A stretch of DNA of 48,365 bases from the NCBI GenBank assembly GCA_029856155.1, contig JAHQWL010000033.1:1-48365 (forward strand), in the 5' to 3' direction. The notes under the pieces are model-generated. The model was not told where the DNA came from, ran no database searches, and was given only the letters and a program-made list of their open reading frames with translations. Below are positions 12,446-48,025 of the stretch, in pieces. This DNA comes from Promethearchaeia archaeon (GTDB lineage: Archaea > Asgardarchaeota > Lokiarchaeia > Sigyniarchaeales > SOKP01). Within the stretch, counting starts at the first letter, position 1; each line of letters begins with the position of its first letter. The position numbers and the translations under genes were made by a program.

Positions 12446-12940
12446 ATGGTATCTTATGATAGAAAAACATTGGAAAGAATGATTGATGGAAAATTACTAT
12501 GGGATGAACTGAAACCAATAATTAGCGGAAGAAAAGATTCCAATAGATTCGATTTGATTATAGAAATATTACAAAAACGTATGCCATGGAAAGAAAAGAT
12601 AATATTACCCCTACATGAACACCTTCAAATCGTCTCGAAAGAAGGAGAGAGAATTGTAAAATGTGATTGTGGACATGAATTTGGAGATTATAGAGAGAAT
12701 TGGAAAACTAAATGTCGCATTAGAGTAAGAGAAACGTTTGAAGAAATTGAGGAGCTTTATCCTAGAGATATGGGTAGTGACCCAGAATGGATAGAATTAA
12801 GAGAATATTTATGTCCAGGATGTTTTACACTCTTGGATGTTGAAGCTGTACCTCCTGGTTATCCAACAATATTTAACTTTCTACCTGATATTGATACTTT
12901 CTATGAAAAATGGTTAGGTAGAAAAGCACCAGATAGGTAA
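12446..12940 (+). CDS. acxC: Acetone carboxylase gamma subunit
   Basis: KCDCGHEFGDYRENWK and REYLCPGCFTLLDVEA zinc-binding CxC/CxxC; C-terminal PDIDTFYEKWLG. Confidence 0.92.
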   Translation: MVSYDRKTLERMIDGKLLWDELKPIISGRKDSNRFDLIIEILQKRMPWKEKIILPLHEHLQIVSKEGERIVKCDCGHEFGDYRENWKTKCRIRVRETFEEIEELYPRDMGSDPEWIELREYLCPGCFTLLDVEAVPPGYPTIFNFLPDIDTFYEKWLGRKAPDR

Positions 12941-24897: not shown

Positions 24898-24912
24898 TAT
24901 GAATAATTATTC
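24898..24912. promoter_or_regulatory. TATGAATAATTATTC motif copy 1 (palindromic core GAATAATTATTC)
   Basis: Exact 15-mer repeated at 25038, 29723 and 29759; about 10 bp upstream of the GNAT start. Confidence 0.7.
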
Positions 24913-25037
24913 GTTTTACAATAGTAAAATTATATTAAATAATTTAAATCTATCGAATAAACTTCGAGAGAAACTATACATTGCTGTATATTATTCAATA
25001 AAATTGAATTTTATTACTGTTTATTAGTGAGGATTAT

Positions 25038-25052
25038 TATGAATAATTATTC
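25038..25052. promoter_or_regulatory. TATGAATAATTATTC motif copy 2
   Basis: Exact 15-mer in intergenic sequence. Confidence 0.65.
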
Positions 25053-25204
25053 TTTTCATAATAATGAATTAAATTTAAGCAAGAATAATTTTCAAATGCA
25101 TAGATATTAAACTAAATGAATTATGTGAACTAATCAAAGAGGTATTTAAAAAATTATTAAATAATAAAGATGAACTATACTTGATATAAAAAAGAGTTAA
25201 ATGT

Positions 25205-25229: not shown

Positions 25230-26123
25230 TTATTTAATTAGGCCTCTCATTTCAATTCCTACATTTTCTAAGGCAAATTTCAATCGAATTCTGTGAAACA
25301 TAAGTCCAATTTCACTCGCATCAAGATCCATTGCTAATGCTAATAATTCAGTTAAATACATCACTGGTATATTATAGTCTTCTTCAAACATTTTTGAGAG
25401 ATTTCTCTGTTGTGTATCAAATTGCTGAAAACATGAAGGACAATTTACGCAGATTACATCTGCCCCAGATTTTCTAATACTATCCATTTTCTTTTTTAAA
25501 GTTGCCAATCCATATTCCTCATAAGCATTTGTTACTGCAGAACCACAACATAAAGCTTCTTCATCGTGATCTACAACAGTTGCTCCTAAAGCAGAAACGA
25601 TTTCTTTTAAATTAGTTGGGTGTAATGGGTCATCAGATTCCATCCATTCAGCAGGTCTCATATAATGACAACCAGGGTGACATGCAACTTTTAGATTCTT
25701 TAAATCTTTCACTACTGAAGATTTTATTTTATCTAAATTATTTTTCAAAACATCAACAAAGTGTTTAACATCGATAGATCCCCTGTATTCTTTACCTATT
25801 TTAGCTAATTCTGCATTAATTTTTTCTTTTTTTAGCGAATCGTGCATTAATTGATGTTTCACTCCTCTTAATGTATTAGCACACCCATTACATAATGAAA
25901 TGATATCCTTACCTTCTGCTTCAGCTAAACAAAGGTTTCTTGCACCCATTGCTAACCAAGTATCGTTATCAAAGCATTTAACACCTGTTGGATCTGGACA
26001 ACAAGAAAATGGTGCTTGAGATGTTTCAATTCCTAACTTTTCAAAAACCTTTCTTGAAGCCGCTTCTACAAAAGGAATTCGATTTCCTATAACGCAACCT
26101 TCAAACATTTTATATTCTGTCAT
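25230..26123 (-). CDS. hdrB: Heterodisulfide reductase subunit B (copy 1)
   Basis: Two CCG domains: GC..SCCP..LCNGC and HPGCH..LCCG..NCPSC. Confidence 0.93.
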   Translation of the reverse strand: MTEYKMFEGCVIGNRIPFVEAASRKVFEKLGIETSQAPFSCCPDPTGVKCFDNDTWLAMGARNLCLAEAEGKDIISLCNGCANTLRGVKHQLMHDSLKKEKINAELAKIGKEYRGSIDVKHFVDVLKNNLDKIKSSVVKDLKNLKVACHPGCHYMRPAEWMESDDPLHPTNLKEIVSALGATVVDHDEEALCCGSAVTNAYEEYGLATLKKKMDSIRKSGADVICVNCPSCFQQFDTQQRNLSKMFEEDYNIPVMYLTELLALAMDLDASEIGLMFHRIRLKFALENVGIEMRGLIK

Positions 26124-26138
26124 TTTTTTACCCTCGAA

Positions 26139-26648
26139 TTATTTTAGTTTTTTTGTTATCCCTATATTTTTCAATAATGTTTGTACCTCATTTATATCTG
26201 GTGTTACTATAGATGGTAAACCTAATTGTTCTCTTCGCCTCTCAATTGCAGGTTGTGAAGGAATTGCTTTTGCGTTTTCGAAAACTGTCTTTGCTTGAGA
26301 ATAAAGGTAATCTGGTCCCTTCCCTAAAGCAATGCTTTGGTTTTTTAGAAAAGTAAAAATTTCTGTGAGCTCAATATTCTGAGGACATACTTCATCACAA
26401 GTATCACAAACAGTACAACCCCAAATTGTTAGGTCATCAGCTTCAAGTAGTAAATCTTTATACCCTAAAAGAGCCAGTAAGATATTTTTTCTAGGATTAT
26501 AACCCTTATCTGGGTCATAAAAATCCATAGATACTTCAGTTACCGGACAATTATCAGCACATCTACTACATTGATAACAGTATTTAATTACATCAGGCCC
26601 AATATGATAATCCATTATTTGTTTTCTAAATTCAAAATTTGTTTCCAT
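26139..26648 (-). CDS. hdrC: Heterodisulfide reductase subunit C (copy 1)
   Basis: CYQCSRCADNCP and WGCTVCDTCDEVCPQ 2x[4Fe-4S] motifs; RREQLGLP. Confidence 0.92.
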   Translation of the reverse strand: METNFEFRKQIMDYHIGPDVIKYCYQCSRCADNCPVTEVSMDFYDPDKGYNPRKNILLALLGYKDLLLEADDLTIWGCTVCDTCDEVCPQNIELTEIFTFLKNQSIALGKGPDYLYSQAKTVFENAKAIPSQPAIERRREQLGLPSIVTPDINEVQTLLKNIGITKKLK

Positions 26649-26694
26649 TTTTTTTCCACTTTTTTCCTAATTTTTTGAATGAATTTTTTTATAA

Positions 26695-26768
26695 TAGGCT
26701 TTAACCCCACGCAAGGGGCAGTCATATCCAATTTCTATTATTTTTATTGAACATTCATCCTAAGCCTA
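26695..26768 (-). promoter_or_regulatory. Eukaryote-type SECIS element of vhuU
   Basis: Minus strand reads AUGA-A-UGUUCAAU-AAAAAUAAUAGAA-AUUGGAUA-U-GA-C: AUGA/GA core, about 9-bp helix, A-rich apical loop. The lower helix is UAGGCUU/AAGCCUA. The core lies about 80 nt 3' of the in-frame UGA. Confidence 0.8.
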
Positions 26769-26904
26769 CGTTTAAATTTCGAGAGTAAATCTCAGTGCCC
26801 TCTTCATCAACAACTGTGATGTGAGCTGCACACGATAGTCAACAGTCAAAGCAGCGAACTATCATCTCTAAGAGATTTACCACGCCTTCTGGTACATCAC
26901 TCAT
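26755..26904 (-). CDS. vhuU: Selenocysteine-containing hydrogenase subunit VhuU (49 aa; absent from the ORF track)
   Basis: MSDVPEGVVNLLEMIVRCFDC-U-LSCAAHITVVDEEGTEIYSRNLNVGLG*. The TGA at 26841-26839 falls on the first ligand of the C-terminal DxCxxCxxH motif that the upstream large subunit lacks. Confidence 0.93.
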
Positions 26905-26946
26905 CTTTTTTGTTCACTTTTTTATTTAATTCTCAATATATTTAAT

Positions 26947-28254
26947 TTATTTAATCCATGGGTCTGGTAATTTTAAACTGTCAAGTGCCTTGTCCTCGAA
27001 AACTTGTTTAGCTACATGCATAAGTGTCTTTTCGATCCCTGCAATATTATGGTTTGTTGCCACTAAGAGATTTGCTTTTTTACATATTCCATCAGCATCA
27101 GACCATATGTTATATAAGAGTAATCCTCGAGGAGCTTCAGTTATGCCAACACCATTTCCTTCTCTAGGTTGAACATCCAAAGTTTTACAATCTGGATTAA
27201 CAACATCATCATCTTGAAGAAGTGTTGCTATTACTTCAATAGATTCGACTAATTCAATTAATCGAGCCCAATGATAAGCAAATGTATGATGAATAACATT
27301 AGTACCGACTTTCGCTCTCATTGCCTGTAATGCTTCGTCAGCTAAGGGAGTAGCCATTTTATCAGCACAATTAATCATCGCCAATGTATTTGCTCGATAT
27401 ATCCCTTCAGGATATCCGGCAGGTTTATAATACATGTGAGTTGCATATGAGTGCTCTGGAATATGTTCACCTAAAACGTCTAGATATTTTTGAGGTGGAT
27501 AATCGAATTTTTGCCCATCAGGAGAAACAATACGAATATTTCCATCATAAATATCGTGAACACCATTTTTAGTCATCCCAACATAGTAAGTAGGAACTAC
27601 TCCTACATTAGCTACTACATCCCAATAATCTTCGACTACTTTTAAGCCAATTTCAACAGTCTTTTTTGACCATTCTACTTGATCTTCAATTTGTTTTAAG
27701 AATAAATCTCGGACATCTTCATCTAAAGGCTTTTTCATACCTCCTACAATTGCTGATATTGGATGTACTGATTTACCACCAACAGCCTGGCATAGTTTTT
27801 GACCAAAATCCATCATTTTTAATGCCATCTTACCCACATCTGGCATTTGATTAATTATATGCACTACGTTCCTTAACGCAGGGTCTGCAAAAGGTCCTAA
27901 TAAGAAATCAGGCGCGGCGAGTGCATAGAAATGCAACGCATGTGATGAATATTGCTTTGCATTTTGCAGCAATTGACGTAATTTATATGCAGCAGGAGGA
28001 ATTTGTACGCCCCATGCATCTTCTACCGCTTTTGTAGGCGTTAAATGATGAGGAATTGGACATATACCACAAATTCTAGGAGTAATCCTTGGAATATGCT
28101 CACAATAACGTCCTTCAAGAAATTTTTCAAAAAATCTTGTTGAGGTAATGTTAAATTGAACATCTTGTACTTTTCCATCATCACCTAGAACTACTCTCAA
28201 ACCACCATGCCCTTCTAATCGAGTTACAGGTTCTACAACTATTTCTTTTACCAT
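26947..28254 (-). CDS. vhuA: Group 3c (F420-non-reducing) [NiFe(Se)] hydrogenase large subunit, C-terminally split
   Basis: TRLEGHG, RFFEKFLEGR, RICGICPIPH, EAPRG, NLLVATNHN; ends LPDPWIK with no DPCxxC motif. Confidence 0.93.
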   Translation of the reverse strand: MVKEIVVEPVTRLEGHGGLRVVLGDDGKVQDVQFNITSTRFFEKFLEGRYCEHIPRITPRICGICPIPHHLTPTKAVEDAWGVQIPPAAYKLRQLLQNAKQYSSHALHFYALAAPDFLLGPFADPALRNVVHIINQMPDVGKMALKMMDFGQKLCQAVGGKSVHPISAIVGGMKKPLDEDVRDLFLKQIEDQVEWSKKTVEIGLKVVEDYWDVVANVGVVPTYYVGMTKNGVHDIYDGNIRIVSPDGQKFDYPPQKYLDVLGEHIPEHSYATHMYYKPAGYPEGIYRANTLAMINCADKMATPLADEALQAMRAKVGTNVIHHTFAYHWARLIELVESIEVIATLLQDDDVVNPDCKTLDVQPREGNGVGITEAPRGLLLYNIWSDADGICKKANLLVATNHNIAGIEKTLMHVAKQVFEDKALDSLKLPDPWIK

Positions 28255-28257
28255 TTT

Positions 28258-29580
28258 TTATTCGCCTCCTTTAAAATTTCTATTTGCTGCTAGTGTAAAT
28301 TTCTCAAAAGTACCGATGTGGTCTTTTACTTGACTAAGCAATTCGTCTTTTGATAGACTCACATTAAATCCTTTAAGTACAGTATCTGCAAATCTCTCCG
28401 CTTGATTAACTCCCCATTCAGTTTGGCCAAAACAGCCAGTACAGGGTGAATTAACCTTTATACACATTCCACCGCAACCAGCTTTAGTAATAGGGCCTGC
28501 ACATATGTAGCCTTGTTCAATAAAACAATCCTCCATATTAGGAAGACCCTCGTAATCTCTTTTTACTCTAGTCATTGTTGATTTACTTCCGATAATTCTT
28601 GGACAGGTATCACAAACAGTTGAAATTTCAGTGAAATCACGATTATCTCTTAAGAATCCCATTAACTTTCCTGCTATTTCTTCTGTTGTAGGAGGAAGAT
28701 TCGCTAGAGGTGTTTCAGGAGAACCACGTTTCTTTATTTGTTTTAAAATATCTCCTGCTAGATCAAATCCCGCCATGAGAGGAATATTTAAAAATAATGG
28801 TAAAAATTCATAGAGACTCTTTTTATCACCCGAACTGAGAGCACCAAGATTATTTGCCATATTATTTAATTTGTCGGCTCTGGAATCAACAGTCTTAGCA
28901 GGTCCAAAGCAGCCAACACAAGGTTTGCCGTCACTAGTACATTTTAAACTACAACCGATACTAGTGATTGGACCAAAGCATAGTGTGCCTTTATCCAATA
29001 AACAATTATCTTTGATACTACAATCATTACAAAATGCTATATCATTCATCGGAAATGGTTTTTGACCTAATAAGAAGACAATTGCGCTTGCAATCGCTTC
29101 TGGTTTTGGAGGACAACCAGACATATACGCATCAACTTTAATAATATCATCAACAGGTACTATTTTATCTGCAAACCCTGGTGTATTCACCATTGGTTCT
29201 CCACCACTACCATCAGCTATACTTTCAACTTCAGAAAACTTGCGTTTTACTAGGTTATCTTTACTCCATTGGTTAGCTAATCCATGCACGTTACCATAAC
29301 ATGAGCAGCTACCAAAAGCCACGATTAAAGCACACTTTTGACGTAGTAATTTAGTTTGTGCTAAATCATGTTTAGTACGTAAACTTCCCTCAACGAATCC
29401 TACAAGAATTTCTCCGTCTTCTCTCGCTTTCAATGAATCATATTTGAAATCTACTACAGCCGGCCAATAGACAATCTCTAATGCTGGGAGAATATTAAGT
29501 AAACCTAAATGCAAATTAAGTAGACTTTGATGACAACCCCAGCAATCAGAATTTTGTAAGAATGCTACTTTTACAGCCAT
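28258..29580 (-). CDS. vhuG: Hydrogenase small subunit (MvhG/VhuG) with duplicated C-terminal Fe-S module
   Basis: DCWGCH, VEGS, AFGSCSCYG, SGCPP; two C..C...C...C.GPIT..GC...C...PC.GCFG modules. ATG 29580 is preferred over GTG 29589 because GGTGA then forms the SD. Confidence 0.9.
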   Translation of the reverse strand: MAVKVAFLQNSDCWGCHQSLLNLHLGLLNILPALEIVYWPAVVDFKYDSLKAREDGEILVGFVEGSLRTKHDLAQTKLLRQKCALIVAFGSCSCYGNVHGLANQWSKDNLVKRKFSEVESIADGSGGEPMVNTPGFADKIVPVDDIIKVDAYMSGCPPKPEAIASAIVFLLGQKPFPMNDIAFCNDCSIKDNCLLDKGTLCFGPITSIGCSLKCTSDGKPCVGCFGPAKTVDSRADKLNNMANNLGALSSGDKKSLYEFLPLFLNIPLMAGFDLAGDILKQIKKRGSPETPLANLPPTTEEIAGKLMGFLRDNRDFTEISTVCDTCPRIIGSKSTMTRVKRDYEGLPNMEDCFIEQGYICAGPITKAGCGGMCIKVNSPCTGCFGQTEWGVNQAERFADTVLKGFNVSLSKDELLSQVKDHIGTFEKFTLAANRNFKGGE

Positions 29581-29722
29581 ATTTTTCACCTAAAAATATA
29601 ATCATATTTCTTTATTTTTCTCATATTTTTTTTTAAAAAAATGAATTTTTAATTATATTCAGAAAATTACTTAATTATTTAATTCTTATTGATTATCTAA
29701 TATAAGTTTTATAAATAACTGA

Positions 29723-29782
29723 TATGAATAATTATTCAAAAATAAAAACAGTTAAATCTATGAATAATTATTCAAAAATAAA
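29723..29782. promoter_or_regulatory. Two 24-bp direct repeats (TATGAATAATTATTCAAAAATAAA), each containing the 14-bp palindrome TGAATAATTATTCA, upstream of the hydrogenase operon
   Basis: Copies at 29723-29746 and 29759-29782, 36-bp period, 140-200 bp upstream of vhuG. Confidence 0.75.
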
Positions 29783-30130
29783 TTTAAATGAACCTAGGAA
29801 TTTGAGATTTTGGAATAATATAATAATGTATTTTGTAAAATGAAGTATTGCATAAAATGAATTAAGTTAGCAGAATTAATTAAATTGGATTTAACCTGGA
29901 ATAAGTTAACAAGATTACCCTATACAATAACACATTTAAAATCTTTGGAAACATTAATTATATATGATAATGAATTGATTTATATCCCCGAATCAATAAG
30001 CAATCTTCAATCACTAACACATTTAAATTTATGCGGTAATAATTTATATAAAATCTCTGCTTCTGTTCAAAATATTGTTAACCTAGAAAAACTCATAATT
30101 TAGTATAATTATATAACACACGCTTCTTAA
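29781..30130 (+). pseudogene. Degraded leucine-rich-repeat protein fragment
   Basis: LDLTWNKLTRLP..LKSLETLIIYDNELIYIPESISNLQSLTHLNLCGNNL are LxxLxLxxNxL repeats. The pattern continues past stops and a frameshift on both sides of ORF 29885-30103. Confidence 0.7.
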
Positions 30131-30177
30131 GACGTATAAATAATATTATAATTACTTATCATTCAATTATAGTTCTT

Positions 30178-30594
30178 TTAGAATGTTTTCATAAAATCAG
30201 ATAAGCTTATTCTTTTCAACCCTGGAATAGAATTAAACTCGTCATCTTCAGATATGATTGAATTATCTAAGTTAATAGCAATCCCCGCATGTAGGCAATT
30301 ATAAAAACTCATATTATGTGTTCTATATAAATTTAAAGCTGTTAAAAAATTTTTTATATTTAAAGGTGCCCAATCAATATTTTTTATACCTTGTAAATTT
30401 CCAACATCATTTTCAAACTCACTTTCAATATCATGCTTCTTATAAATATAGTTTAATTCTAACAGAGAAATTATAGAAAGTTTAGCAGTAAAAATCCCTT
30501 CATGAATCTTTTTAAATAGAAAACTAGCACATTCATGGTTTTTATCGTTTTTATTCAAAAATGCATATATAGTATCTGTCTCAACTAAAGGCAT
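30178..30594 (-). CDS. PIN-domain VapC-like toxin
   Basis: LVETDTIYAFLNKNDKNH, SLLEL, SFYNCLHAGIA, IISEDDEF; probable start ATG 30594, just after the antitoxin stop. Confidence 0.85.
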   Translation of the reverse strand: MPLVETDTIYAFLNKNDKNHECASFLFKKIHEGIFTAKLSIISLLELNYIYKKHDIESEFENDVGNLQGIKNIDWAPLNIKNFLTALNLYRTHNMSFYNCLHAGIAINLDNSIISEDDEFNSIPGLKRISLSDFMKTF

Positions 30595-30598
30595 ATGA

Positions 30599-30841
30599 TT
30601 ACACAATATTAAAGTCATCTAAAGCTAATTTTTCTAAATTCTTTTTTAGGATTTTTAATGGTCTCTCCCAATTATATTTACCATTTAAACATTCAAATGG
30701 ATTCCTGCTCAATGGAATAATTGCTATATGATCACCAGCATCAAATTGAAGTACTTCTTGGCCTGGGTCTATATTATATTTTTTTCTTAATTTATTTTTA
30801 ATAACTATTTCCCCATGTTTACCTATTTTTGCATTAGGCAT
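30599..30841 (-). CDS. AbrB/MazE/SpoVT-family antitoxin
   Basis: KIGKHGEIVIKNKLRKKYNIDPGQEV; directly upstream of the PIN gene. Confidence 0.85.
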   Translation of the reverse strand: MPNAKIGKHGEIVIKNKLRKKYNIDPGQEVLQFDAGDHIAIIPLSRNPFECLNGKYNWERPLKILKKNLEKLALDDFNIV

Positions 30842-31097
30842 ATGTATTCTCCGATTTTATTCACTTTATTATTAATACTAAAAGTTAAAAACATAAAAAT
30901 ATTGTTTTTTAATTATTAGATACACAGTATACAACAATAATATTTTTAAAAATGGTAAAGCGTATTATCAATAATATCTATTTTTGTTAAAATTTTACAA
31001 AATTATGTTTTAGATTATAAATACTTCCTTCAATAATTGTCTTTTTAAAAACTTTTAGGAACATCTATCATTATTAATATCAAATAATCTAAAATAA

Positions 31098-31127
31098 TTC
31101 GAACTTTTTTCAAGTAAGAAGTTCGAA
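31098..31127. promoter_or_regulatory. Inverted repeat TTCGAACTT-N12-AAGTTCGAA
   Basis: Perfect 9-bp arms in the divergent region between the antitoxin and the Lrp gene. Confidence 0.45.
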
Positions 31128-31249
31128 AATAGAAAAAAGATTTGAGAATAATAATGAATAATGAATAAAAAGATTAATAATGTATAATAAAAGAATTTTT
31201 TTAAAGAATAAGCTAAAATTTTAATGATAACTTATTTAAAATTACATAA

Positions 31250-31266
31250 TTTTGTTCAGAACAAAA
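31250..31266. promoter_or_regulatory. Palindrome TTTTGTTC-A-GAACAAAA upstream of the Lrp/AsnC gene
   Basis: Perfect 8-bp arms about 70 bp before ATG 31335. Confidence 0.5.
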
Positions 31267-31334
31267 AGTTAGAGTACGGAGGCATATTTCTCCTTTAAAA
31301 ATATTTAAATAGATAAGTTTATTCCATTAATTAC

Positions 31335-31865
31335 ATGAACACTAAATTAGATAAGACAGATCGTGAAATTCTTGACATTTTAACTCAAGATGGCAGGGAA
31401 GCTTTTACGAAAATCTCAGAGAAATTATCCTTTAGTGATACGGGAGTTAAGAAGAGATTATCTAAACTAAATAAAGATGGAATATTAAAGGTACAAGGGA
31501 ATCTTAGTCTTGATGCATTACATTTCAAAGCGTGCTTAATACTTCTCGAGATTAGAACAAATGAAGATTTGAATAATATAATCAAAGCTTATGAATCTTG
31601 CCCTTATTTATTTTTAACATTAGAATTATTAGGGAGTTTTAACCTTCTGATAGGGTTCTATGGGCATAATATAGAAGACCTAGATAAAAAAATAAAATAT
31701 TGTGGCCCCAGGCGTATGCAAGGTGTTTTACATTCAAAATTAATATTAATTTCAAGTTTTAAAATACCTCAATTTTTACCGCTTAAAATAATTAGTGAAA
31801 ATAACTTTCAAAAAGAAAGCCTCCATATCTGTGAAAAATGTCAGAGATACAAATTAGAAAGGTAA
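31335..31865 (+). CDS. Lrp/AsnC-family transcriptional regulator with Cys-containing C-terminal tail
   Basis: LDKTDREILDILTQDGR...ISEKL.....VKKRLSKL HTH; CP, CGP and CEKC cysteines. Confidence 0.88.
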   Translation: MNTKLDKTDREILDILTQDGREAFTKISEKLSFSDTGVKKRLSKLNKDGILKVQGNLSLDALHFKACLILLEIRTNEDLNNIIKAYESCPYLFLTLELLGSFNLLIGFYGHNIEDLDKKIKYCGPRRMQGVLHSKLILISSFKIPQFLPLKIISENNFQKESLHICEKCQRYKLER

Positions 31866-31973
31866 TCAACATCTGATTATATTGTCTATTTATATCTATT
31901 TATTAGTATAGTTTCTAAACTAGTCAATAGATGTTATGTAAATAAAAAAGAAAAAAAAAGAAAATTAGTATAA

Positions 31974-34040
31974 TTAAATCTTTTCAATTTTTGCTGCGCA
32001 TACTTTATATTCTGGGATTTTCGCTATGGGATCGACAGCATTTATCGTAAGAACATTAGCTGGAGCTTCTTCAAAGTGGAATGGAATAAATATTAAACCT
32101 TTTTTAACCCGATCTGTTACTTTCGTTTTAATTGTAATTTCTCCACGGCGAGTCTTAACTTTAACTTTCTGTCCATCTACGATATTCATATCAACCGCAT
32201 CTTGAGGAGAAACTTCAACATATCCTTCAGGAACTCTTGCATTTAAAGTTGCGGATCTTCTACTCATTGTTCCCGTATGATAATGCCAGAGCATCCTTCC
32301 CGTCGACAAGATTAGAGGATAATCATTATCAGGTAATTCTGCTGGTTCTTTAAATGAGATTGCATGAAAATGCCCTTTGCCTCTCGAGAATTTGCCGTCT
32401 TTATGTAAATAAATAGTTCCAGGGTGATTTTCATCAGGACAAGGCCATTGAAAACCTTCATCTGTAGCATTTAACCTTTCCCATGTAATTCCACAATATA
32501 TAGGGGTCACTCTATTTATTTCTGAAAGAATTTCTTTTGGATGGGAATATGATAGTCCATCATAACCCATAGCTTTCGCAATTAAGCCAATAATTTCCCA
32601 ATCATGTTTAGAATTTCCTACAGGAGGAATTACTTGTCTTATCAATTGAATTCTTCTTTCAGTACTGGTGAAAGTTCCATCGGTTTCAGCAAAAGAAGCA
32701 GCAGGTAAGACTACATCAGCTAATTCTGTTGTAGGGGTTGGAAAAATATCTTGCACAACGAGGAATACCTTTTTTAAGCCTTTTCTTACATGATTAATGT
32801 CGGGATCGCTCATCATGGGATTTTCTCCCATTACGTACAATCCTTTTAAATTACCATCACAGGCTTCATTTATCATCTCAGTAACGGTGAGACCAACTTT
32901 ATCATCCATTTCATTTACATCAATCCCCCATTCTTTTGCCATCTTTTCACGTTTATCAGCTTCAACAACCTTTTGATAACCAGAAAATACATTCGATAAT
33001 GCTCCAAGATCACACGCACCTTGAACATTTTGTTGTCCCCGTAAAGGATTGACACCCGTACCCCATTTTCCCATATTTCCGCATAACATTTGAAGATTTG
33101 CAGTGCTTTTAACATTGTCTACACCTGTAGTGTGCTGTGTTATTCCCATCGAATATATCAAGGATACTGCTTTTCCGTTTCCAATAATTCTTGCTGCATC
33201 AATAATCTTTTCTTTTTTAACACCAGTTATTTCAGCTGCTTTCTCTGGAGTCATTTTCATGACTTCTTCTTTAAATTCTTCAAAATTCTCACAGTAATTG
33301 TCAATAAATTCTTTATCATAAAGATTTTCTTTTATAATAACATTCATCATGCCATTCATAAGTGCTACATCCGTTCCAGGTCTCTGGTTCATCTCAATAC
33401 CATCATGATCTGTTGCCAATTCAGATAAAGGAATGGTACGAGGATCTGCGACAATGATTTTTGCGCCTTTAGATAAAGCGGTTAATACTCTTTTTCCTAT
33501 GAGGGGATGTTGTTCATTAGTATTAGATCCAGTAATGAAAATAACATCAGCATCTGCAATTTCATCAATGGAATTAGTCATGGCACCAGATCCAAAAGCA
33601 GCAGCTAATCCAGCAACTGTGGAAGAGTGACATAGCCTTGCACAGTGATCTATATTATTAGTTTTGAATACGGTTCTAGCAAATTTTTGCATAACATAAT
33701 TTTCTTCATTTGTGCATTTTGCAGAACTTAAAAATCCGAGTACCCTCTTATTTCCGGGATTTTCCTCCATTATCTTTTTAAAGTTCTCAGCAATGTAGCT
33801 TATCGCCTCATCCCAACTTACTTCTACTAACGTTCCATTTTTTCTGATCATGGGTTCAATAAGCCTATCCGGATGATGGATGAATTCATGGACATTCCAC
33901 CCTTTGATACACAATTTTCCTAGTCCCGGATTAAATCCATCTCGGACTGGTTTGGTATCAACAATTTTTCCATCCTGAACTTTTAAATATATTTGGCAAC
34001 CTGTACCACAATACACACAAGTCGTTTTTACTTTCTCCAC
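31974..34040 (-). CDS. fdhA: Mo/W-bisPGD formate dehydrogenase alpha subunit, Cys form
   Basis: TCVYCGTGC...LCIKG [4Fe-4S], HCARLCHSST, LRGQQNVQG, IPEYKVCA; GTG start with GGAGG SD. Confidence 0.95.
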   Translation of the reverse strand: MEKVKTTCVYCGTGCQIYLKVQDGKIVDTKPVRDGFNPGLGKLCIKGWNVHEFIHHPDRLIEPMIRKNGTLVEVSWDEAISYIAENFKKIMEENPGNKRVLGFLSSAKCTNEENYVMQKFARTVFKTNNIDHCARLCHSSTVAGLAAAFGSGAMTNSIDEIADADVIFITGSNTNEQHPLIGKRVLTALSKGAKIIVADPRTIPLSELATDHDGIEMNQRPGTDVALMNGMMNVIIKENLYDKEFIDNYCENFEEFKEEVMKMTPEKAAEITGVKKEKIIDAARIIGNGKAVSLIYSMGITQHTTGVDNVKSTANLQMLCGNMGKWGTGVNPLRGQQNVQGACDLGALSNVFSGYQKVVEADKREKMAKEWGIDVNEMDDKVGLTVTEMINEACDGNLKGLYVMGENPMMSDPDINHVRKGLKKVFLVVQDIFPTPTTELADVVLPAASFAETDGTFTSTERRIQLIRQVIPPVGNSKHDWEIIGLIAKAMGYDGLSYSHPKEILSEINRVTPIYCGITWERLNATDEGFQWPCPDENHPGTIYLHKDGKFSRGKGHFHAISFKEPAELPDNDYPLILSTGRMLWHYHTGTMSRRSATLNARVPEGYVEVSPQDAVDMNIVDGQKVKVKTRRGEITIKTKVTDRVKKGLIFIPFHFEEAPANVLTINAVDPIAKIPEYKVCAAKIEKI

Positions 34041-34041
34041 T

Positions 34042-34932
34042 TTACATTACCTCCCATACTTTTATTTCTGGTTTAATTCTATGTGTTTTATATCCAATTT
34101 CATCCAAACTCTTACCCATGGCTAATCCTATCAATTCAACCGCGTACATTACAGGAATTTTAGAATCTTTGAGTTCAGGATAATCCCTCGATGCCATAAT
34201 CTGTCCCATATCAAATTGTATAAAGCAAAAAGGACATCCAGTACTTAAAATGTGTGCTCCAGTATGATTTTTTATATCGAGTAGTTTATTTGCAATACAT
34301 TTATTATTAGCTTCTTTATCACCAACTAAATTTAATGCAACACCACAGCAATCCACCTTAGTTATATAATCGACTGCGGTGGCTCCCAACGCTGAAACAA
34401 ATTTATCGTATTCTTGTGGATCAGTGGGGTCATCATATTTAAGAATCTCATCTGGCATCAGTAAATGGCACCCAGGATGACTCGCAACTTTTAAACCATG
34501 TAAAGGCTTTTTAACTTTACTCTTTAAATTCTCATATCCTAGATCTTCCTTAATTACCTGCATTAGATGTTTAACCTTAACGGTACCTTTATACTCTTTA
34601 CCGATTTCCTTTAATACATTATTTACAGCAGCTTTTAATTCTGCACTCTTTTGTAATTTTGCGTTAGTTATTGCTAAGGTATTTAAACAACCGTTACAAA
34701 GCGTCATAATGTCCATTCCTTTCTCTTCAGCAATTGCTAAATTTCTTGCAGCAACAGCTAACCAGAAATAATGATTTGCCCCTTCAAGCTGAACTGGATC
34801 TGGACAACAAGAAAACTGTTCTTCTTCCTGCAGCTCGATCCCTATTTCAGGAAGAATATCTAAAGCAAGTTTTTCCACATTTGGTAACTTAGCTGGTATA
34901 GTACACCCTTTAAAAAATAGATATTTAGGCAT
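34042..34932 (-). CDS. hdrB: Heterodisulfide reductase subunit B (copy 2)
   Basis: GC..SCCP..LCNGC and HPGCH..DCCG..GCPFC. Confidence 0.93.
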   Translation of the reverse strand: MPKYLFFKGCTIPAKLPNVEKLALDILPEIGIELQEEEQFSCCPDPVQLEGANHYFWLAVAARNLAIAEEKGMDIMTLCNGCLNTLAITNAKLQKSAELKAAVNNVLKEIGKEYKGTVKVKHLMQVIKEDLGYENLKSKVKKPLHGLKVASHPGCHLLMPDEILKYDDPTDPQEYDKFVSALGATAVDYITKVDCCGVALNLVGDKEANNKCIANKLLDIKNHTGAHILSTGCPFCFIQFDMGQIMASRDYPELKDSKIPVMYAVELIGLAMGKSLDEIGYKTHRIKPEIKVWEVM

Positions 34933-34935
34933 AAT

Positions 34936-35418
34936 TTAAGCAACCTCCGTTTTAAAAGCAGTTCTTTCTGCAATTATTCTTAATTCTTTAATTACATTCT
35001 CATTTGCAGATAATTCTTTTAAGCCTATTTTTTTCCTGTCAGCATTAACTTTAGCACCAGTTTCATACGCAATGCCCGTATTTAAGACTTGTTTTGCTAA
35101 AGCATAAACAGAACTTGGAGCTAAACCTCTCTGATAAGATAACTGTTTCAAGTTCGTAAATACTTCAGCGGGTTCCGCATCTTGAGGGCATACCATGATG
35201 CATTTTTCACAATTACTACACATCCACACATCTTTCAATGTTGTAGATTCTTCTGCTCCATAGAGCTGTGAAATGAAAGCATCTTCAATATTATATCTAC
35301 TGACATTCATAGTGACGGGACAAAATAAAGCACAGGCCGAACATTTAAAACAGACAGCAACTTCAGGGTTTTTTTCTATTATTTCATCCTTATCGTATTT
35401 TATTCTAATTACTTCCAT
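34936..35418 (-). CDS. hdrC: Heterodisulfide reductase subunit C (copy 2)
   Basis: CFKCSACALFCP and WMCSNCEKCIMVCPQ. Confidence 0.9.
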   Translation of the reverse strand: MEVIRIKYDKDEIIEKNPEVAVCFKCSACALFCPVTMNVSRYNIEDAFISQLYGAEESTTLKDVWMCSNCEKCIMVCPQDAEPAEVFTNLKQLSYQRGLAPSSVYALAKQVLNTGIAYETGAKVNADRKKIGLKELSANENVIKELRIIAERTAFKTEVA

Positions 35419-35603: not shown

Positions 35604-35646
35604 AGTTCGGATTTCGAACTATTGAATAATTATCGGTTCGATAATT
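35604..35646. promoter_or_regulatory. Adjacent palindromes AGTTCG-N5-CGAACT and AATTATCG-GTT-CGATAATT in the fdh/FNT divergent promoter
   Basis: At 35604-35620 and 35628-35646; they also overlap TGAATAATTAT, a partial copy of the hydrogenase-operon motif. Confidence 0.55.
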
Positions 35647-35769: not shown

Positions 35770-36882
35770 ATGTCTTGTATAGATCCTACAATTAATGCTA
35801 TTTCGAATGCGGGATCTGGTAAAACCAAACAATCATTTGCAGTTAACTTACTTACGGGTTGGAATGCAGGAGCGTTCATTGCTATAGGTGCCACACTAGC
35901 AACTATTTCGGCCATAAAAGTAAGTGCGGCTTGGAGTAATTTTATCTTTGCGGCAGTGTTCCCCATTGGTCTTATCGGTATTATCTTTATGGGAGGAGCC
36001 GATCTCTTTACTGGAGATTGCATGATTACCCCTTTAGCATGTTACACGCGAAAGTCAAAAATGAATGAAGTATTTAGAAATTGGTTTTTAGCTCTTGGAG
36101 GAAATCTGATAGGATCCATTTGTTGGGCTTGGATTGTTGCCTTTTCTTTAATATATGGAGGGAGTATAACGGCAGGTGCTGCTACTAAAGCGATCGCTGT
36201 GGCAAATGGAAAAGTTGCATTAGTGGGGCAAGATTTCATTGGTGGATTTTCCGTGATGGTATTTAAAGGTATAATCTGTAATTTATTGGTTAATTTTGCG
36301 ATATATCAAGCCACTAAATCTAATGAAAATCTAATGGCAAAAGTGTTCAACATATGGTTTCCTATAATGGCATTCGTCATGGTTGGATCCGAGCACCTTA
36401 TAGCGAATATGTTCTTCATACCTGTTGGAATCTTCTCAGGAGCTCCGATAACGTGGACTCAGACCTTCATTTCCAATTTTCTACCAGTCTTATTAGGAAA
36501 CATGATTGGGGGATATGTATTCATGGGATTGAATTATTGGTTTACAACTGGAAGCCATGATGTCAACGATCCCGAAGGAACCGTACATTCTGATGCAAAA
36601 CGTATAGGGAGAGCTATTAAAATGTTAGTTCCCTTAATAATCGGTTTTGTAATTTTAGCTTTAGCCTATATCATTGTACCCGCAGGAATCTCCATGATTA
36701 TGGAAATAGGTATTACACCAACTGATGGCTATGCACGTATAGACTTAATGCAACCTGCAAATCTAATGCTAGGTAATGTGATGACAACTGTCATAATTCC
36801 GGTTGTAATTATTGTATATACGATTCTAATAAGTATAGTATTAAGAATAGTGTTCAGAAAAGCCGTAAAACTTAGAAAATAG
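35770..36882 (+). CDS. fdhC: Formate/nitrite transporter (FNT, FocA/FdhC family) with C-terminal extension
   Basis: FPIGLI, GADLFTG, GNLIG, KGIICNLLV, EHLIANM, LGNMIGG; divergent from the fdhA operon. Confidence 0.9.
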   Translation: MSCIDPTINAISNAGSGKTKQSFAVNLLTGWNAGAFIAIGATLATISAIKVSAAWSNFIFAAVFPIGLIGIIFMGGADLFTGDCMITPLACYTRKSKMNEVFRNWFLALGGNLIGSICWAWIVAFSLIYGGSITAGAATKAIAVANGKVALVGQDFIGGFSVMVFKGIICNLLVNFAIYQATKSNENLMAKVFNIWFPIMAFVMVGSEHLIANMFFIPVGIFSGAPITWTQTFISNFLPVLLGNMIGGYVFMGLNYWFTTGSHDVNDPEGTVHSDAKRIGRAIKMLVPLIIGFVILALAYIIVPAGISMIMEIGITPTDGYARIDLMQPANLMLGNVMTTVIIPVVIIVYTILISIVLRIVFRKAVKLRK

Positions 36883-38770: not shown

Positions 38771-39823
38771 ATGAGTATGAAGAAAGTGAGTTCGAGTGTT
38801 ATTCGATTAGCACATGGAGCTGGAGGGGTATTACAAGAAGAACTGATTAATTTCATTACGCGTAACATTACTTATAAGAAGATAGGTAAAGGAATCGGAG
38901 TAGAAGAATTGGATGATGGTGCTACCATTCCTTTAGAAGATTATGATCAAGAAATTGTAGTTACTGCTGATGGGCATACTATTTATCCTCTATTTTTTCC
39001 CGGAGGAGACTTAGGAACATTAAGTGTTTGTGGAACTGTTAATGATCTGATAATGATGGGTGCTGAACCCTTAGCTTTGACATCGATGGTAATCATAGAA
39101 GAAGGATTCAAATTTAGTCAATTGGAAAGAATAGTTAATTCAATGAATTTAATGGCAAAAGAGGCTAATATTGCGATAATTGCGGGGGATACTAAAGTAA
39201 TGCCGAGGGGAACATTAAATGAGTTAATTATTGCGACAACTGGCATTGGAATTAAGGATAAAAACATAAAAGTTTTAGACAACAACATTAGAACTGGAGA
39301 TCATATCATCCTAACTGGAAGTATTGGAGATCATGGGACAGCATTAATCGCTTCACGAGAAGGATTGAATATATCTACTGATTTGAAATCAGATGTCTCA
39401 CTACTACTCGAAATCTATAATGTATTGAAGTCTGATATTAGTAATAATTATATCCATGCAATGAAGGATCCCACACGCGGAGGAATAGCTGCTGCTTTGA
39501 ATAATTGGGCAGTAAAATCAAATATTAGTATTTGGATTGATGAAGAAAAAATCCCGATTAAAAAACAAGTTGAAGCAATATGCGATATGTTAGGTTTAGA
39601 TCCTTACAACATTGCAAGTGAAGGAAGAGCTCTCTTGGCAGTAGATCCAAATCATTCTGAAAGTATCTTAGAGAAAATAAAGGCAACCCAGATTGGCAAA
39701 GAAGCGGAAATAATTGGTGAAGTAAGAGCTGAAAATCCTAAACGAGTGTTCTTAAAAACAATTGTTGGTGGTACTCGATTTGTAGATATGCCACTAGGAG
39801 AACCAATCCCCAGAATTTGTTAA
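38771..39823 (+). CDS. hypE: Hydrogenase maturation carbamoyl dehydratase HypE
   Basis: LAHGAGG, FPGGDLG, GTVNDL, GDTKV, KDPTRGG, C-terminal PRIC. Confidence 0.96.
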   Translation: MSMKKVSSSVIRLAHGAGGVLQEELINFITRNITYKKIGKGIGVEELDDGATIPLEDYDQEIVVTADGHTIYPLFFPGGDLGTLSVCGTVNDLIMMGAEPLALTSMVIIEEGFKFSQLERIVNSMNLMAKEANIAIIAGDTKVMPRGTLNELIIATTGIGIKDKNIKVLDNNIRTGDHIILTGSIGDHGTALIASREGLNISTDLKSDVSLLLEIYNVLKSDISNNYIHAMKDPTRGGIAAALNNWAVKSNISIWIDEEKIPIKKQVEAICDMLGLDPYNIASEGRALLAVDPNHSESILEKIKATQIGKEAEIIGEVRAENPKRVFLKTIVGGTRFVDMPLGEPIPRIC

Positions 39824-39834
39824 TAGGTGAAAAT

Positions 39835-40929
39835 ATGGATATTCCCGGTTTGGATGTTTTAAGAAACAAAGAATTTACCAATAAAATTATTAAGTCAATT
39901 ATTAAAACTTTTAAAGAAATAGGTAAACCAGTTAAATTGATGCATGTTTGTGGAACTCATGAACATACAATTTCTAAATATGGATTAAGAACTCTATTAC
40001 CTAAAGAAATTGAAATATTATCGGGTCCAGGATGCCCAGTATGTGTATGTCCTGCTGCTGATATTGATAAAGCGATTGAGCTTGGAAAACGAAATGATAC
40101 GATAATAACAACTTTTGGAGATATGATCAGAGTTCCTGCTACAAATATCTCTCTTGCTGAACTTAAAGCAAGAGGTTCTGATGTACGTATTATATATGGG
40201 CCAAATGATGCTGTTAAAATAGCTAAGGAAAATCCAGATAAAGAGGTGATATTTTTTGCAATAGGATTTGAAACAACAGTCCCATTAATAGGATACGAAT
40301 TACAATCTGGGCCGCCTTCAAATTTTTCAGTAATATGTGCTCATAAGTTAATACCGGCGGCTTTAGAACTTTTAATGAGTCAATCTCAATTAAAAATTGA
40401 TGGTTTTATTTCCCCTGGGCACGTATCAACCATAATAGGTTTAAAACCATATGAAATATTTTCTCAGGGCTATCACATTCCTAATGTCATTACGGGATTT
40501 GAGCCAAATGATGTATTACTCTCAATCCTAATGCTTTTGAAGCAGGTGAGAGATAAAAAATATGATACTTTAAATGAATACTCTAGAGTTGTGAAACCCG
40601 AAGGGAATATAATCGCTCAAAAGATAATAGAAGATGTGTTTGAACCTGTCTCATCTCCATGGAGAGGTATCGGGAGAGTTAATGATGGTGGATTGATTAT
40701 TAGAGAGGAATACAGCCAATTTGACGCTGACCAAAAGTATAATATAAAAATCTCAAAATCTCAAGATATTCCTCCTGGCTGTTCTTGTCATCTTGTTATG
40801 GTTGGAAAATTATATCCTTATGAGTGTAAATTGTTTAGGAAAGAATGCACTCCAATTAATCCGATTGGACCATGTATGGTTTCAATGGAAGGAACTTGTA
40901 GTATTTATTACAAATTTCATGAAAGATAA
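39835..40929 (+). CDS. hypD: Hydrogenase maturation protein HypD
   Basis: VCGTH, GPGCPVCV, GFETT, PGHVS, GPCMVSMEGTC; ATG 39835 follows an AGGTGA SD. Confidence 0.96.
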   Translation: MDIPGLDVLRNKEFTNKIIKSIIKTFKEIGKPVKLMHVCGTHEHTISKYGLRTLLPKEIEILSGPGCPVCVCPAADIDKAIELGKRNDTIITTFGDMIRVPATNISLAELKARGSDVRIIYGPNDAVKIAKENPDKEVIFFAIGFETTVPLIGYELQSGPPSNFSVICAHKLIPAALELLMSQSQLKIDGFISPGHVSTIIGLKPYEIFSQGYHIPNVITGFEPNDVLLSILMLLKQVRDKKYDTLNEYSRVVKPEGNIIAQKIIEDVFEPVSSPWRGIGRVNDGGLIIREEYSQFDADQKYNIKISKSQDIPPGCSCHLVMVGKLYPYECKLFRKECTPINPIGPCMVSMEGTCSIYYKFHER

Positions 40930-41017
40930 TAATAGTCTTGTAGAAGAATGTCAAAAACAACAAAACTATATTTTAAATTAGAGATGAAAAATCTTAAACT
41001 GAACATGGAAAACATGA

Positions 41018-41426
41018 TTAATATTTGTCAGTTCCCCACGAATCTATAGCAGGAAAATTACATCGATATCCTTTTCTATAATTTTTATTAAAATATGTTT
41101 TTACATACATTCCTCATATTTTTTTATCGAGATCTACCCGAGTTAGTCCTTGGGATTTAGAATTTGAAGAAAAATTTTCAGTGTTATAATCGAGACTACA
41201 TTTCCAAAAATAAGGTTTTTTTTTAAGGTATAAAGATCTATCTTCTACATACTCTTGCATCCAAGGTACAAGATAAATATCATCTTTCCCTTCAAAATAA
41301 TTAATCAGATATTTTAGTCCAGATTCAAAAATTCCTTCACTTGCTGCCCAATATCCCCCCAATAACTTACGAGCACAATTAAAATACACCCTTTTAAATC
41401 TCTTACTGTTGGCTATTTATAGTCAT
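41018..41426 (-). pseudogene. Probable disrupted hypothetical gene including ORF 41114-41389
   Basis: The frame stays open for about 30 codons beyond TGA 41116-41114 (GMYVKTYFNKNYRKGYRCNFPAIDSWGTDKY*). The nearest upstream ATG (41426) is out of frame by one base. Confidence 0.4.
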
Positions 41427-41540
41427 TTCTAAAACAAAAGCATAATTTAATAATATTTAACATAATAAAATATTAGTTTTTTTAGTGATTATTTAATTAA
41501 TTAAATTTGAAAAAGAAATAGAAAACTTGAAGGCAATTAT

Positions 41541-47341: not shown

Positions 47342-48025
47342 TTGTTAAAAATAAGAAAAAAATCTAAATTTATAGCAATTGCGGTTTTAATTGGAGGTAA
47401 AAGCAGTCGATTTGGAAGTGATAAAGGACTTTTCGAAGTTTCAGGAAAACCTCTTATATCTTATTTAATTGATACTTTAAGTGATCTTAAATATGATATA
47501 TTTTTAGTGACTAATTCCATTGAACAAATGCAAGATTATATCAAAAAAGTTGATATTGAAAATCTTACCGCTTTTATCATCGATGAAAAAGATATCATCC
47601 CTGATAAAACTCTACAAACACCTATGATTGGTTTATATTCTGCATTTAACGAATTAAAGGGATTATGCTACAGAAAAGTGTTGATTTTATCATGTGATTC
47701 TCCTTTAATTAAAAAAGAAGTATTGGAATATTTAATTGAAAAATGTGAAAATTCAGATTGTTGCATCCCTAAATGGGAAAATGGTTTTTTAGAACCATTA
47801 ATAGCAATTTATCCTATTAAAAAGGCACTAAAGACAATAAAAAGGAATTTTAAAAATAAATTATACAAACTAACAAATATATTAAGTACACATTGGAAAA
47901 TAAATTTTATTTCCATTGAAAAAGAGATAAAACAAATAGATAGTGAACTTTCTACTTTTATTAATATAAATGAACTAAAAGATATTGAAGAACTAAAAAA
48001 AAAATACAAAAAAAAAAAGGATTAG
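47342..48025 (+). CDS. mobA: Molybdenum cofactor guanylyltransferase
   Basis: LIGGKSSRFGSDKG, PMIGLYSA, SCDSP, EPLIAIY, FININELKD. Confidence 0.9.
   Translation: MLKIRKKSKFIAIAVLIGGKSSRFGSDKGLFEVSGKPLISYLIDTLSDLKYDIFLVTNSIEQMQDYIKKVDIENLTAFIIDEKDIIPDKTLQTPMIGLYSAFNELKGLCYRKVLILSCDSPLIKKEVLEYLIEKCENSDCCIPKWENGFLEPLIAIYPIKKALKTIKRNFKNKLYKLTNILSTHWKINFISIEKEIKQIDSELSTFININELKDIEELKKKYKKKKD

Follow-up and report, generated by a model that had tools for sequence, protein, structure and literature searches.

Which acceptor takes the electrons when a hydrogenase and a formate dehydrogenase are each encoded together with an HdrC and an HdrB, and neither with an HdrA? The question is raised by contig JAHQWL010000033.1 of a Promethearchaeia archaeon (assembly GCA_029856155.1), which was analysed over its whole length of 48,365 nucleotides (hereafter the window). 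Two operons on its minus strand are at issue: a formate operon of the order hdrC-hdrB-fdhA (35418-31974), with a divergent focA, and a hydrogenase operon of the order mvhG-vhuA-vhuU-hdrC-hdrB (29589-25230), in which vhuU encodes selenocysteine (Sec). The original prediction had recognised two divergent hdrCB pairs, one in each donor operon, and the genes do lie where it had placed them; at 42% identity between the two HdrB and 31% between the two HdrC, they are old paralogues. Its distance of about 8 kb is right for the spacing from hdrB to hdrB (8.8 kb), but as a gap between the operons it is too large, since only 2.4 kb separate the end of fdhA from the start of mvhG. It had not listed vhuU, the rarity of the formate module, the class-wide occurrence of the hydrogenase module or the gene order in strain MK-D1, all of which are described below.

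The same prediction noted that HdrA, MvhD and FdhB are missing from the window, and offered two explanations, namely that each donor has its own HdrBC and shares a remote HdrA/VhuD, or that both modules are non-bifurcating donor:disulfide oxidoreductases. Genome-wide family searches bear out the absence: no match to MvhD (PF02662), FrhB/FdhB (PF04432) or HdrA (NF041778) lies on this contig (C33). Elsewhere in the genome (4.1 Mb, 97% complete, about 30% G+C), the searches gave 15 matches for MvhD and about 15 of the FrhB/FdhB-like kind, and HdrA is represented by more than 12 genes, several of them with an in-frame TGA. By database name, the closest protein homologues of the window belong to Promethearchaeota and Lokiarchaeota. 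Judged from the genes, it is somewhat probable that both modules work as stand-alone, non-bifurcating donor:disulfide oxidoreductases. Taken one by one, the formate module appears to do so with good probability, and for the hydrogenase module the call is close to even, if anything slightly short of it.

The formate trio in Asgard archaea and bacteria

The formate operon is compact. Its hdrC (34936-35418, minus strand; TIGR03290 at 63.9 bits and Fer4 families) is followed by an hdrB with two CCG domains (34042-34932, minus strand; PF02754, and TIGR03288 at 261.8 bits with a cut-off of 345.15), whose product matches HdrB of the Protein Data Bank at E 1e-61, and by fdhA (31974-34040, minus strand), whose start codon lies 1 nucleotide past the hdrB stop. 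FdhA, of 688 residues, is a cytoplasmic formate dehydrogenase alpha subunit of the Mo/W-bis-PGD (pyranopterin guanine dinucleotide) type matching the FdhF/FdhH-type model TIGR01591 as well as PF04879, PF00384 and PF01568; it passes the TIGR01591 cut-off of 666.25 with 843.7 bits, retains the [4Fe-4S], molybdopterin and molybdopterin guanine dinucleotide-binding domains, has one N-terminal [4Fe-4S] cluster, and is the Cys rather than the Sec form (HCARLCH). The gaps of 1-3 nucleotides in this operon, like those of 3-106 nucleotides in the hydrogenase operon, fit co-transcription. Both HdrB proteins of the window contain two complete CCG motifs and both HdrC proteins two CxxCxxCxxxCP motifs, the cluster complement expected of the HdrB and HdrC partners of a group 3c hydrogenase.

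This gene trio is by no means confined to the window. A pattern scan with one genome per species returned 30 trio loci, each with 2-17 kb of sequence and some ending at a contig boundary, and wherever the contig allows, the order hdrC-hdrB-fdhA is the same in Promethearchaeota, Atribacterota and Desulfobacterota/Syntrophaceae. The Atribacterota, described in the literature as widespread in the subsurface, account for at least 13 loci with FdhA 71-75% and HdrB 61-66% identical to the window proteins; FdhA of Desulfobacterota and Syntrophaceae is 46-56% identical. No seed match to HdrA, MvhD or FrhB was found in the 2-17 kb around the trio at any of the 30 loci. When the flanking open reading frames were clustered, only the trio itself was common to different phyla, and no conserved redox or thiol-protein neighbour was common across them; the Asgard loci add focA and an Lrp-type regulator. 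The trio is thus a portable three-gene module, and the pairing of FdhA with HdrBC is not a matter of local chance.

A maximum likelihood tree of 66 HdrB sequences, rooted at its midpoint, places the Fdh-linked HdrB in one clade (support 100/99) and the hydrogenase-linked HdrB in another (100/98), whereas canonical HdrB encoded next to hdrA-mvhD fall outside both. These separate clades justify the term donor-specific and uphold the suggestion that each donor has an HdrBC of its own. Atribacterota HdrB is nested within the Asgard Fdh-linked sequences, and the midpoint root gives no direction of transfer.

What do the genomes that carry the trio have to offer as partners? A whole-genome census of the 13 Atribacterota trio carriers found no MvhD in 11, and in 10 either no HdrA or a ferredoxin-domain match only; both proteins are encoded by the window's own genome. 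That two genes were missed ten times independently is difficult to explain by gaps in metagenome-assembled genomes (MAGs). Since neither a real HdrA nor an MvhD was found in most carriers, FdhA-HdrC-HdrB most likely works alone, at least in Atribacterota, and because the Asgard proteins belong to the same tight clade, the same very probably holds for the Asgard host. Between the two explanations first offered, the non-bifurcating one is therefore strongly favoured for the formate module.

If so, FdhA-HdrC-HdrB would be a self-contained enzyme of three subunits that transfers two electrons without bifurcation. Formate, carried across the membrane by FocA, would be oxidised at the Mo/W-pterin of FdhA, and the electrons would pass through the FdhA [4Fe-4S] cluster and the two HdrC clusters to the two noncubane clusters of HdrB, where some disulfide would be reduced; alternatively, the chain would run in reverse for the reduction of CO2.

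In the Asgard lineage itself the module is an accessory, for among 61 relatives sampled (the genome of the window and 60 others) an FdhA orthologue was found in only 3, the genome of the window and two more. The module has probably moved horizontally. The focA-type formate channel gene (35770-36882, plus strand; PF01226 at 195 bits), divergent from hdrC-hdrB-fdhA, also stands beside the trio in the Asgard loci L063-L069 and L085. An Lrp/AsnC-type gene (31335-31865, plus strand; PF13404/PF13412), convergent with fdhA, has homologues at the equivalent place in L063 (11014-11571), L064, L065 and L085, and its product, whose C-terminal tail is rich in Cys, is a candidate for a regulator of the formate or redox type.

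A few trio loci are peculiar in their own right. A 194-residue FMN_red flavoprotein with a CxxC motif is encoded directly after fdhA in 5 of the 13 Atribacterota loci (e.g. L071:11090-11674) and could be an extra partner or acceptor. The MAG at L077 has lost the hdrB stop codon, giving one HdrB-FdhA frame of 989 residues in which about 5 residues link the two parts; looking for longer HdrB fusions returned only HdrC-HdrB fusions of about 540 residues and no second HdrB-FdhA fusion, so this one counts as an anecdotal hint. L085 is filed as Nanopelagicaceae (Actinomycetota), yet its vhu and fdh operons are Asgard ones, 82-88% identical, probably through mis-binning. L076 is filed as Promethearchaeota and has an HdrB inside the Atribacterota clade, a case of either mis-binning or recent transfer.

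The hydrogenase module of Lokiarchaeia

The first gene of the hydrogenase operon, mvhG (28258-29589, minus strand; PF01058, NF045875 VhuG), encodes a small subunit of 443 residues. Every canonical Cys for the three [4Fe-4S] clusters of group 3c is retained, and in addition an internal insertion of about 140 residues (about residues 178-320) carries a second eight-Cys, two-cluster module; alignment A2 places the insertion after the proximal-cluster domain and before the canonical medial/distal module. The AlphaFold2 model (predicted local distance difference test, pLDDT, 77) has its best match in MvhG of 5ODC/5ODI chain E, with a TM-score of 0.86 on the target. Next in the operon, vhuA (26947-28254, minus strand; NF041785, PF00374) encodes a [NiFe(Se)] large subunit of 435 residues that lacks the C-terminal ligand pair; it matches NF041785 over positions 3-417 of 418 with 473 bits, short of the cut-off of 800, and has the N-terminal motif RICGICPIPH. 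The C-terminal ligands reside in vhuU (26755-26904, minus strand), a selenopeptide reading frame of 49 codons in which D-C-U-L-S-C-A-A-H can be read directly, with the in-frame TGA for Sec at 26839-26841, the first C-terminal Ni-ligand position. The N- and C-terminal ligand motifs of a group 3c large subunit are accordingly both present, divided over VhuA and VhuU, and vhuU adjoins vhuA in all relatives examined. The active-site peptide R-C-F-D-C-U-L-S-C (26839-26856) has a Cys right before Sec where the canonical motif has Pro. A VhuU with Sec and its selenocysteine insertion sequence (SECIS) has been published for Lokiarchaeota (PMC4989117); the SECIS reported there for a Loki VhuU is eukaryote-like, and the stop codon of vhuU forms part of its AUGA.

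Two Hdr genes complete the operon. The hdrC (26139-26648, minus strand; two [4Fe-4S] motifs; TIGR03290 at 71.5 bits with a cut-off of 160, Fer4_8) comes after either mvhG or vhuU in relatives, and the product of hdrB with its two CCG domains (25230-26123, minus strand; PF02754, and TIGR03288 at 260.4 bits with a cut-off of 345.15) matches HdrB of 8RVU/5ODC over its full length at E 1e-64. The group 3c arrangement in which MvhD is encoded with the hydrogenase is not found here.

Tracing this operon through the phylum reveals a form of its own. The genus of the window has the order mvhG-vhuA-vhuU-hdrC-hdrB; families f2 (closed genomes included) and f6 have mvhG-hdrC-hdrB-vhuA-vhuU, with hdrCB between the small- and large-subunit genes; families f5 and f7 keep mvhG-hdrC-hdrB together and have vhuA-vhuU elsewhere. 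The extended mvhG, hdrC and hdrB stay together across families f1, f2, f5, f6 and f7. In these Lokiarchaeial lineages MvhG is 435-510 residues long, as opposed to about 305-345 elsewhere. Within a phylum-wide sample of 201 genomes the long form was found in f1 and f2 only, and other searches add f4, f5 and f7, families that fall within the order or class of the window. VhuA occurs in 51 of the 61 relatives, and most relatives have no HdrA within 10 kb of the module. The module is the core, Lokiarchaeia-wide form of the group 3c enzyme, and here too the pairing with hdrCB is no local accident.

Other Asgard families are arranged differently. There, mvhD lies directly upstream of a normal-length mvhG in all 11 loci that were fetched, with hdrA beside it in 5 and hdrCB as well in 4, and VhuA is 54-62% identical to that of the window; G059 is the one long-MvhG locus, of those examined, that has mvhD immediately upstream of mvhG. 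Given the 11 canonical loci, the simplest history begins with an ancestor of the order hdrCBA-mvhD-mvhG-vhuA-vhuU, from which, in Lokiarchaeia, mvhD would have been lost at the locus, the MvhG insertion gained and hdrCB fixed onto mvhG. Some relatives also carry extra long-MvhG paralogues (L108-L112, L095, L096), 37-55% identical and 455-511 residues long, with no adjacent vhuA or hdrCB.

The hydrogenase module would most likely couple H2 directly to a disulfide/dithiol couple of the kind proposed for the formate module. Electrons from H2 would pass from the Ni-Fe-Se site of VhuA/U through the MvhG clusters, those of the insertion included, to HdrC, HdrB and the disulfide, and presumably both electron chains are reversible. 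For this module a remote HdrA/MvhD partner is a real possibility, for reasons taken up below.

Expression was considered through contigs from four public metatranscriptome libraries. Some parts of the locus have no cover (e.g. 29684-32532), which was not taken as silence. Contigs from two soil libraries, 97-98% identical, cover fdhA-hdrB-hdrC and bridge both junctions. Two salt-marsh libraries have contigs 100% identical to hdrB, the vhuU-hdrC junction (26602-26866, across the whole vhuU-hdrC spacer at 26649-26768), the mvhG-vhuA junction and mvhG. Contigs of this kind cannot prove a single transcript, and DNA carry-over is possible. In MK-D1 the hydrogenase genes DSAG12_03951-03954 all have expression values (PMC7015854, Supplementary Table 4).

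Around the vhu operon, a 15-nucleotide palindrome, ATGAATAATTATTCA, is found in four copies, each with 0-1 mismatch (24899-25054 and 29724-29775), two of them about 135-185 nucleotides upstream of mvhG and two downstream of hdrB; it may be an operator of the vhu-hdr operon. An operator shared by both operons was considered and rejected: at 35623, in the hdrC-focA spacer, the palindrome departs from this sequence at 3 positions, no better than chance (24 matches against 17 expected).

Linkage of the two operons and competing explanations

Does the proximity of the two operons mean anything? The suggestion that together they interconvert H2 and formate through a thiol pool, in an organism that is not a methanogen, has its only support in the placement of the fdh module beside vhu genes. 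The two lie about 1-2.5 kb apart in three arrangements: in tandem (the window, L063, L064 and L085), on the focA side (L066) and convergent (L058). The alternative is that the operons are unrelated neighbours, a mobile fdh cassette having been inserted by accident without any functional coupling of H2 and formate. Consistent with this are the scarcity of FdhA orthologues compared with VhuA (3 versus 51 of 61 relatives), a genome with more than 500 kb between the trio and vhuA (G045/L068) and the lack of a significant ATGAATAATTATTCA palindrome at the fdh promoter. An accident would have to account for the same proximity in all three arrangements, and for the company that the operons keep on the contig. 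The [NiFe] maturation genes hypE (38771-39823, plus strand; AIRS/AIRS_C), hypD (39817-40929, plus strand; HypD at 479.7 bits) and hypF (41541-43937, plus strand; HypF domains) span 38771-43937, and a mobA-like nucleotidyltransferase gene (47342-48025, plus strand; PF12804 at 88 bits) encodes a candidate for guanylylation of the FdhA cofactor. With these genes on the same contig, the window is a small H2/formate island, and I regard a purely accidental association as doubtful.

Other parts of the contig have less to do with either donor. Between the operons lie a PIN-domain gene, a small upstream reading frame that looks like AbrB/VapB without a Pfam match, and a leucine-rich-repeat gene fragment (30178-30841, 29885-30103); this stretch is probably an insertion, because L063, L064 and L085 have a matching spacer of no more than about 1.1 kb. 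Further off, at 8061-12940, three genes stand together, for hydantoinase A, for hydantoinase B and for an acetone-carboxylase-gamma-like protein; their stretch has a clearly higher G+C (0.35-0.37 against about 0.28-0.30) and may be acquired DNA.

A different alternative concerns the enzymes themselves. The HdrCB pairs could be donor-specific docking modules for an HdrA-MvhD encoded at a distance, which would make the complexes bifurcating or confurcating MvhADG-HdrABC and Fdh-MvhD-HdrABC with scattered genes. Such docking in trans is possible given the many HdrA and MvhD genes that the genome of the window and all Lokiarchaeia sampled carry, and most HdrA genes of this genome have no HdrBC of their own. 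The genome has about seven HdrBC pairs and only two [NiFe] hydrogenases. A stand-alone pair of Sec-HdrA and Sec-MvhD genes on contig C98, with no donor or HdrBC genes around it, would suit the role, and the hydrogenase of MK-D1 has been named MvhADG-HdrABC (PMC7015854). The second [NiFe] hydrogenase (C22:50329-54570, L117) is a mirror image of that in the window, with an HdrA-MvhD fusion of 850 residues, a normal-length MvhG, MvhA and no hdrBC.

Together with these abundant HdrA and MvhD genes, a number of observations weigh against stand-alone enzymes. In the HdrB tree, the sister group of the hydrogenase-linked clade consists of the HdrB from two HdrA-containing superclusters of the window's own genome (C4 and C97). 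The hydrogenase module has a canonical hdrC'-hdrB'-hdrA-mvhD operon as its immediate neighbour on the downstream side in G053 and on the upstream side in G059, and paralogous long-MvhG genes have such an operon nearby in G060 (3 kb upstream) and G147 (divergent); its repeated adjacency in differing arrangements hints at a functional tie. The MvhG insertion has 8 Cys in f1 and only 4 of them in f2, f6 and f7, which makes a simple picture of a longer wire uncertain. The completeness values of the Atribacterota MAGs are not reported, and both modules are known from sequence data. There is also the matter of energy. Soluble, non-bifurcating reduction by H2 of a disulfide like that of coenzyme M and coenzyme B (CoM-S-S-CoB) would waste energy, and the reverse would be strongly uphill; production of H2 or formate would call for a carrier of far more negative potential than CoM-S-S-CoB. 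On these textbook potentials, stand-alone enzymes would need a disulfide of lower potential.

Docking in trans nevertheless accounts poorly for several of the results. For formate, 10 of the 13 Atribacterota carriers have no real HdrA or MvhD match to dock with, and none of the 30 loci has them nearby. For the hydrogenase, mvhD keeps its place upstream of mvhG in every canonical operon fetched and in G059 alone among the long-MvhG loci examined. No single HdrA type strictly co-occurs with VhuA. The orthologue of the hydrogenase-adjacent HdrA of relatives lies on C51 with its own hdrC'B' and without mvhD, and its assignment as the hydrogenase partner was dropped, as all four combinations of presence and absence of this HdrA type and VhuA occur in the 61 relatives. 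Nor does the genome of the window have a clear orthologue of the hydrogenase-adjacent MvhD of relatives, the best match being 57-61% identical and in another cluster. I therefore consider docking in trans unlikely overall, although the adjacent canonical operons and the Sec pair on C98 keep it in contention for the hydrogenase.

If the modules are stand-alone enzymes, what do they reduce? McrA (PF02249), ComA (PF02679) and DsrC were not found in this 97% complete genome; other routes to coenzyme M were not searched. The host is thus, as predicted, not a methanogen, the usual Hdr substrates are unlikely, and CoM-S-S-CoB is an unlikely substrate on this gene content. The missing ComA, McrA and DsrC equally suit a further alternative, in which the HdrC- and HdrB-like subunits are an electron-output or anchor module for some other acceptor, such as a lipid-soluble carrier, polysulfide, or a persulfide or disulfide bound to a protein. 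Neither HdrB reaches the CoB-CoM equivalog cut-off of TIGR03288 (260 against 345 bits), which makes them homologues and not equivalogs, and the second-best NCBIfam model for both is SdhE, the membrane anchor of methylmenaquinol:fumarate reductase (149 and 164 bits). CCG proteins that serve other acceptors are well known (GlcF, GlpC, LutA and SdhE), and in type E succinate dehydrogenases SdhE gives output to a lipid-soluble carrier. This alternative is quite improbable, since HdrB rather than SdhE is the best family match, both proteins can be aligned over their full length (about 280 residues) with HdrB from methanogen complexes of known structure, with all CCG cysteines kept, and the carriers are probably fermenters that lack quinones.

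Stand-alone donor:disulfide oxidoreductases would have consequences beyond this locus. The Lokiarchaeial hydrogenase has been taken as a confurcating MvhADG-HdrABC (PMC7015854), also in the syntrophy models of eukaryote origin, which lean on the H2 and formate metabolism of Lokiarchaeia. Were it an HdrA-free hydrogenase:disulfide oxidoreductase, its energetics, its reversibility and the identity of its electron carrier would need rethinking, and FdhA-HdrC-HdrB would add a simple formate-linked disulfide reductase. The trio also offers a tractable three-gene handle on the substrate of HdrBC in organisms without coenzyme M and coenzyme B. At its most far-reaching, and here I would be sceptical, the proposal is that Lokiarchaeia including the MK-D1 lineage have no classical bifurcating Mvh-Hdr hydrogenase at all and link H2 and formate through a soluble thiol/disulfide carrier. 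Hydrogenase-HdrCB and FdhA-HdrCB would then be two-electron plugs into a pool that HdrA complexes without HdrBC also use; in hosts that have both, the two modules together would form a soluble, thiol-mediated formate-hydrogen lyase, and FdhA-HdrCB would be a new class of formate:disulfide oxidoreductase common to Asgard archaea and Atribacterota.

Comparison with known systems

No published description was found of an FdhA-HdrBC enzyme, an MvhAG-HdrBC enzyme or an HdrA-less HdrBC with these donors. The gene order of the hydrogenase is on record, uninterpreted, only in Supplementary Table 4 of PMC7015854, where the sole NiFe hydrogenase of MK-D1 is listed as DSAG12_03951 MvhA, 03952 HdrB, 03953 HdrC and 03954 MvhG. 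This is the order found in the sister family f2. The main text of that paper calls the enzyme an electron-confurcating MvhADG-HdrABC and does not discuss the lack of hdrA and mvhD in the operon or the MvhG insertion. FdhA of MK-D1 is listed alone, as a single locus, and no close orthologue of the window FdhA was found in f2 genomes.

Among characterised complexes, the hydrogenase module is closest to MvhAGD-HdrABC of Methanothermococcus thermolithotrophicus (5ODC) and to methanococcal Vhu/Hdr. It has the same split into VhuA and a Sec-containing VhuU, the same MvhG fold by the structural match given above, and full-length HdrB and HdrC homologues with all cluster ligands. Unlike 5ODC, it is accompanied by neither mvhD nor hdrA, whether in the operon or elsewhere on the contig, it has the insertion of about 140 residues in MvhG and its hdrCB is locked to mvhG; its host, moreover, has neither Mcr nor ComA, which makes CoM-S-S-CoB an unlikely substrate.

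The formate counterpart of that system is the formate-dependent Hdr (FdhAB-MvhD-HdrABC) of Methanococcus and Methanospirillum. Bacterial HdrBCA-MvhD-FdhBA clusters are also known (e.g. PMC5736913). With these the trio shares a cytoplasmic molybdopterin FdhA genetically tied to HdrB and HdrC. It differs in having no FdhB, MvhD or HdrA nearby in any of 30 loci, HdrC taking the place of the electron-transfer subunit. In keeping with this, no FdhB partner (PF04432) is encoded on the contig, and no FrhB seed match was obtained in the 30 loci.

HdrBC-type enzymes that work without HdrA do exist, in thiol:fumarate reductase (TfrAB), HdrDE and HdrD fusions. The HdrB proteins of the window do not belong to the TfrB/HdrD type (NF004898 at 44.6 and 52.9 bits, with a cut-off of 385), they are partnered by a formate dehydrogenase or by a [NiFeSe] hydrogenase, and there is no membrane subunit. 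The likeness is thus one of architecture only: a catalytic subunit, donor or acceptor, connected by HdrC-like clusters with a CCG site of the HdrB kind, for two-electron transfer without flavin bifurcation.

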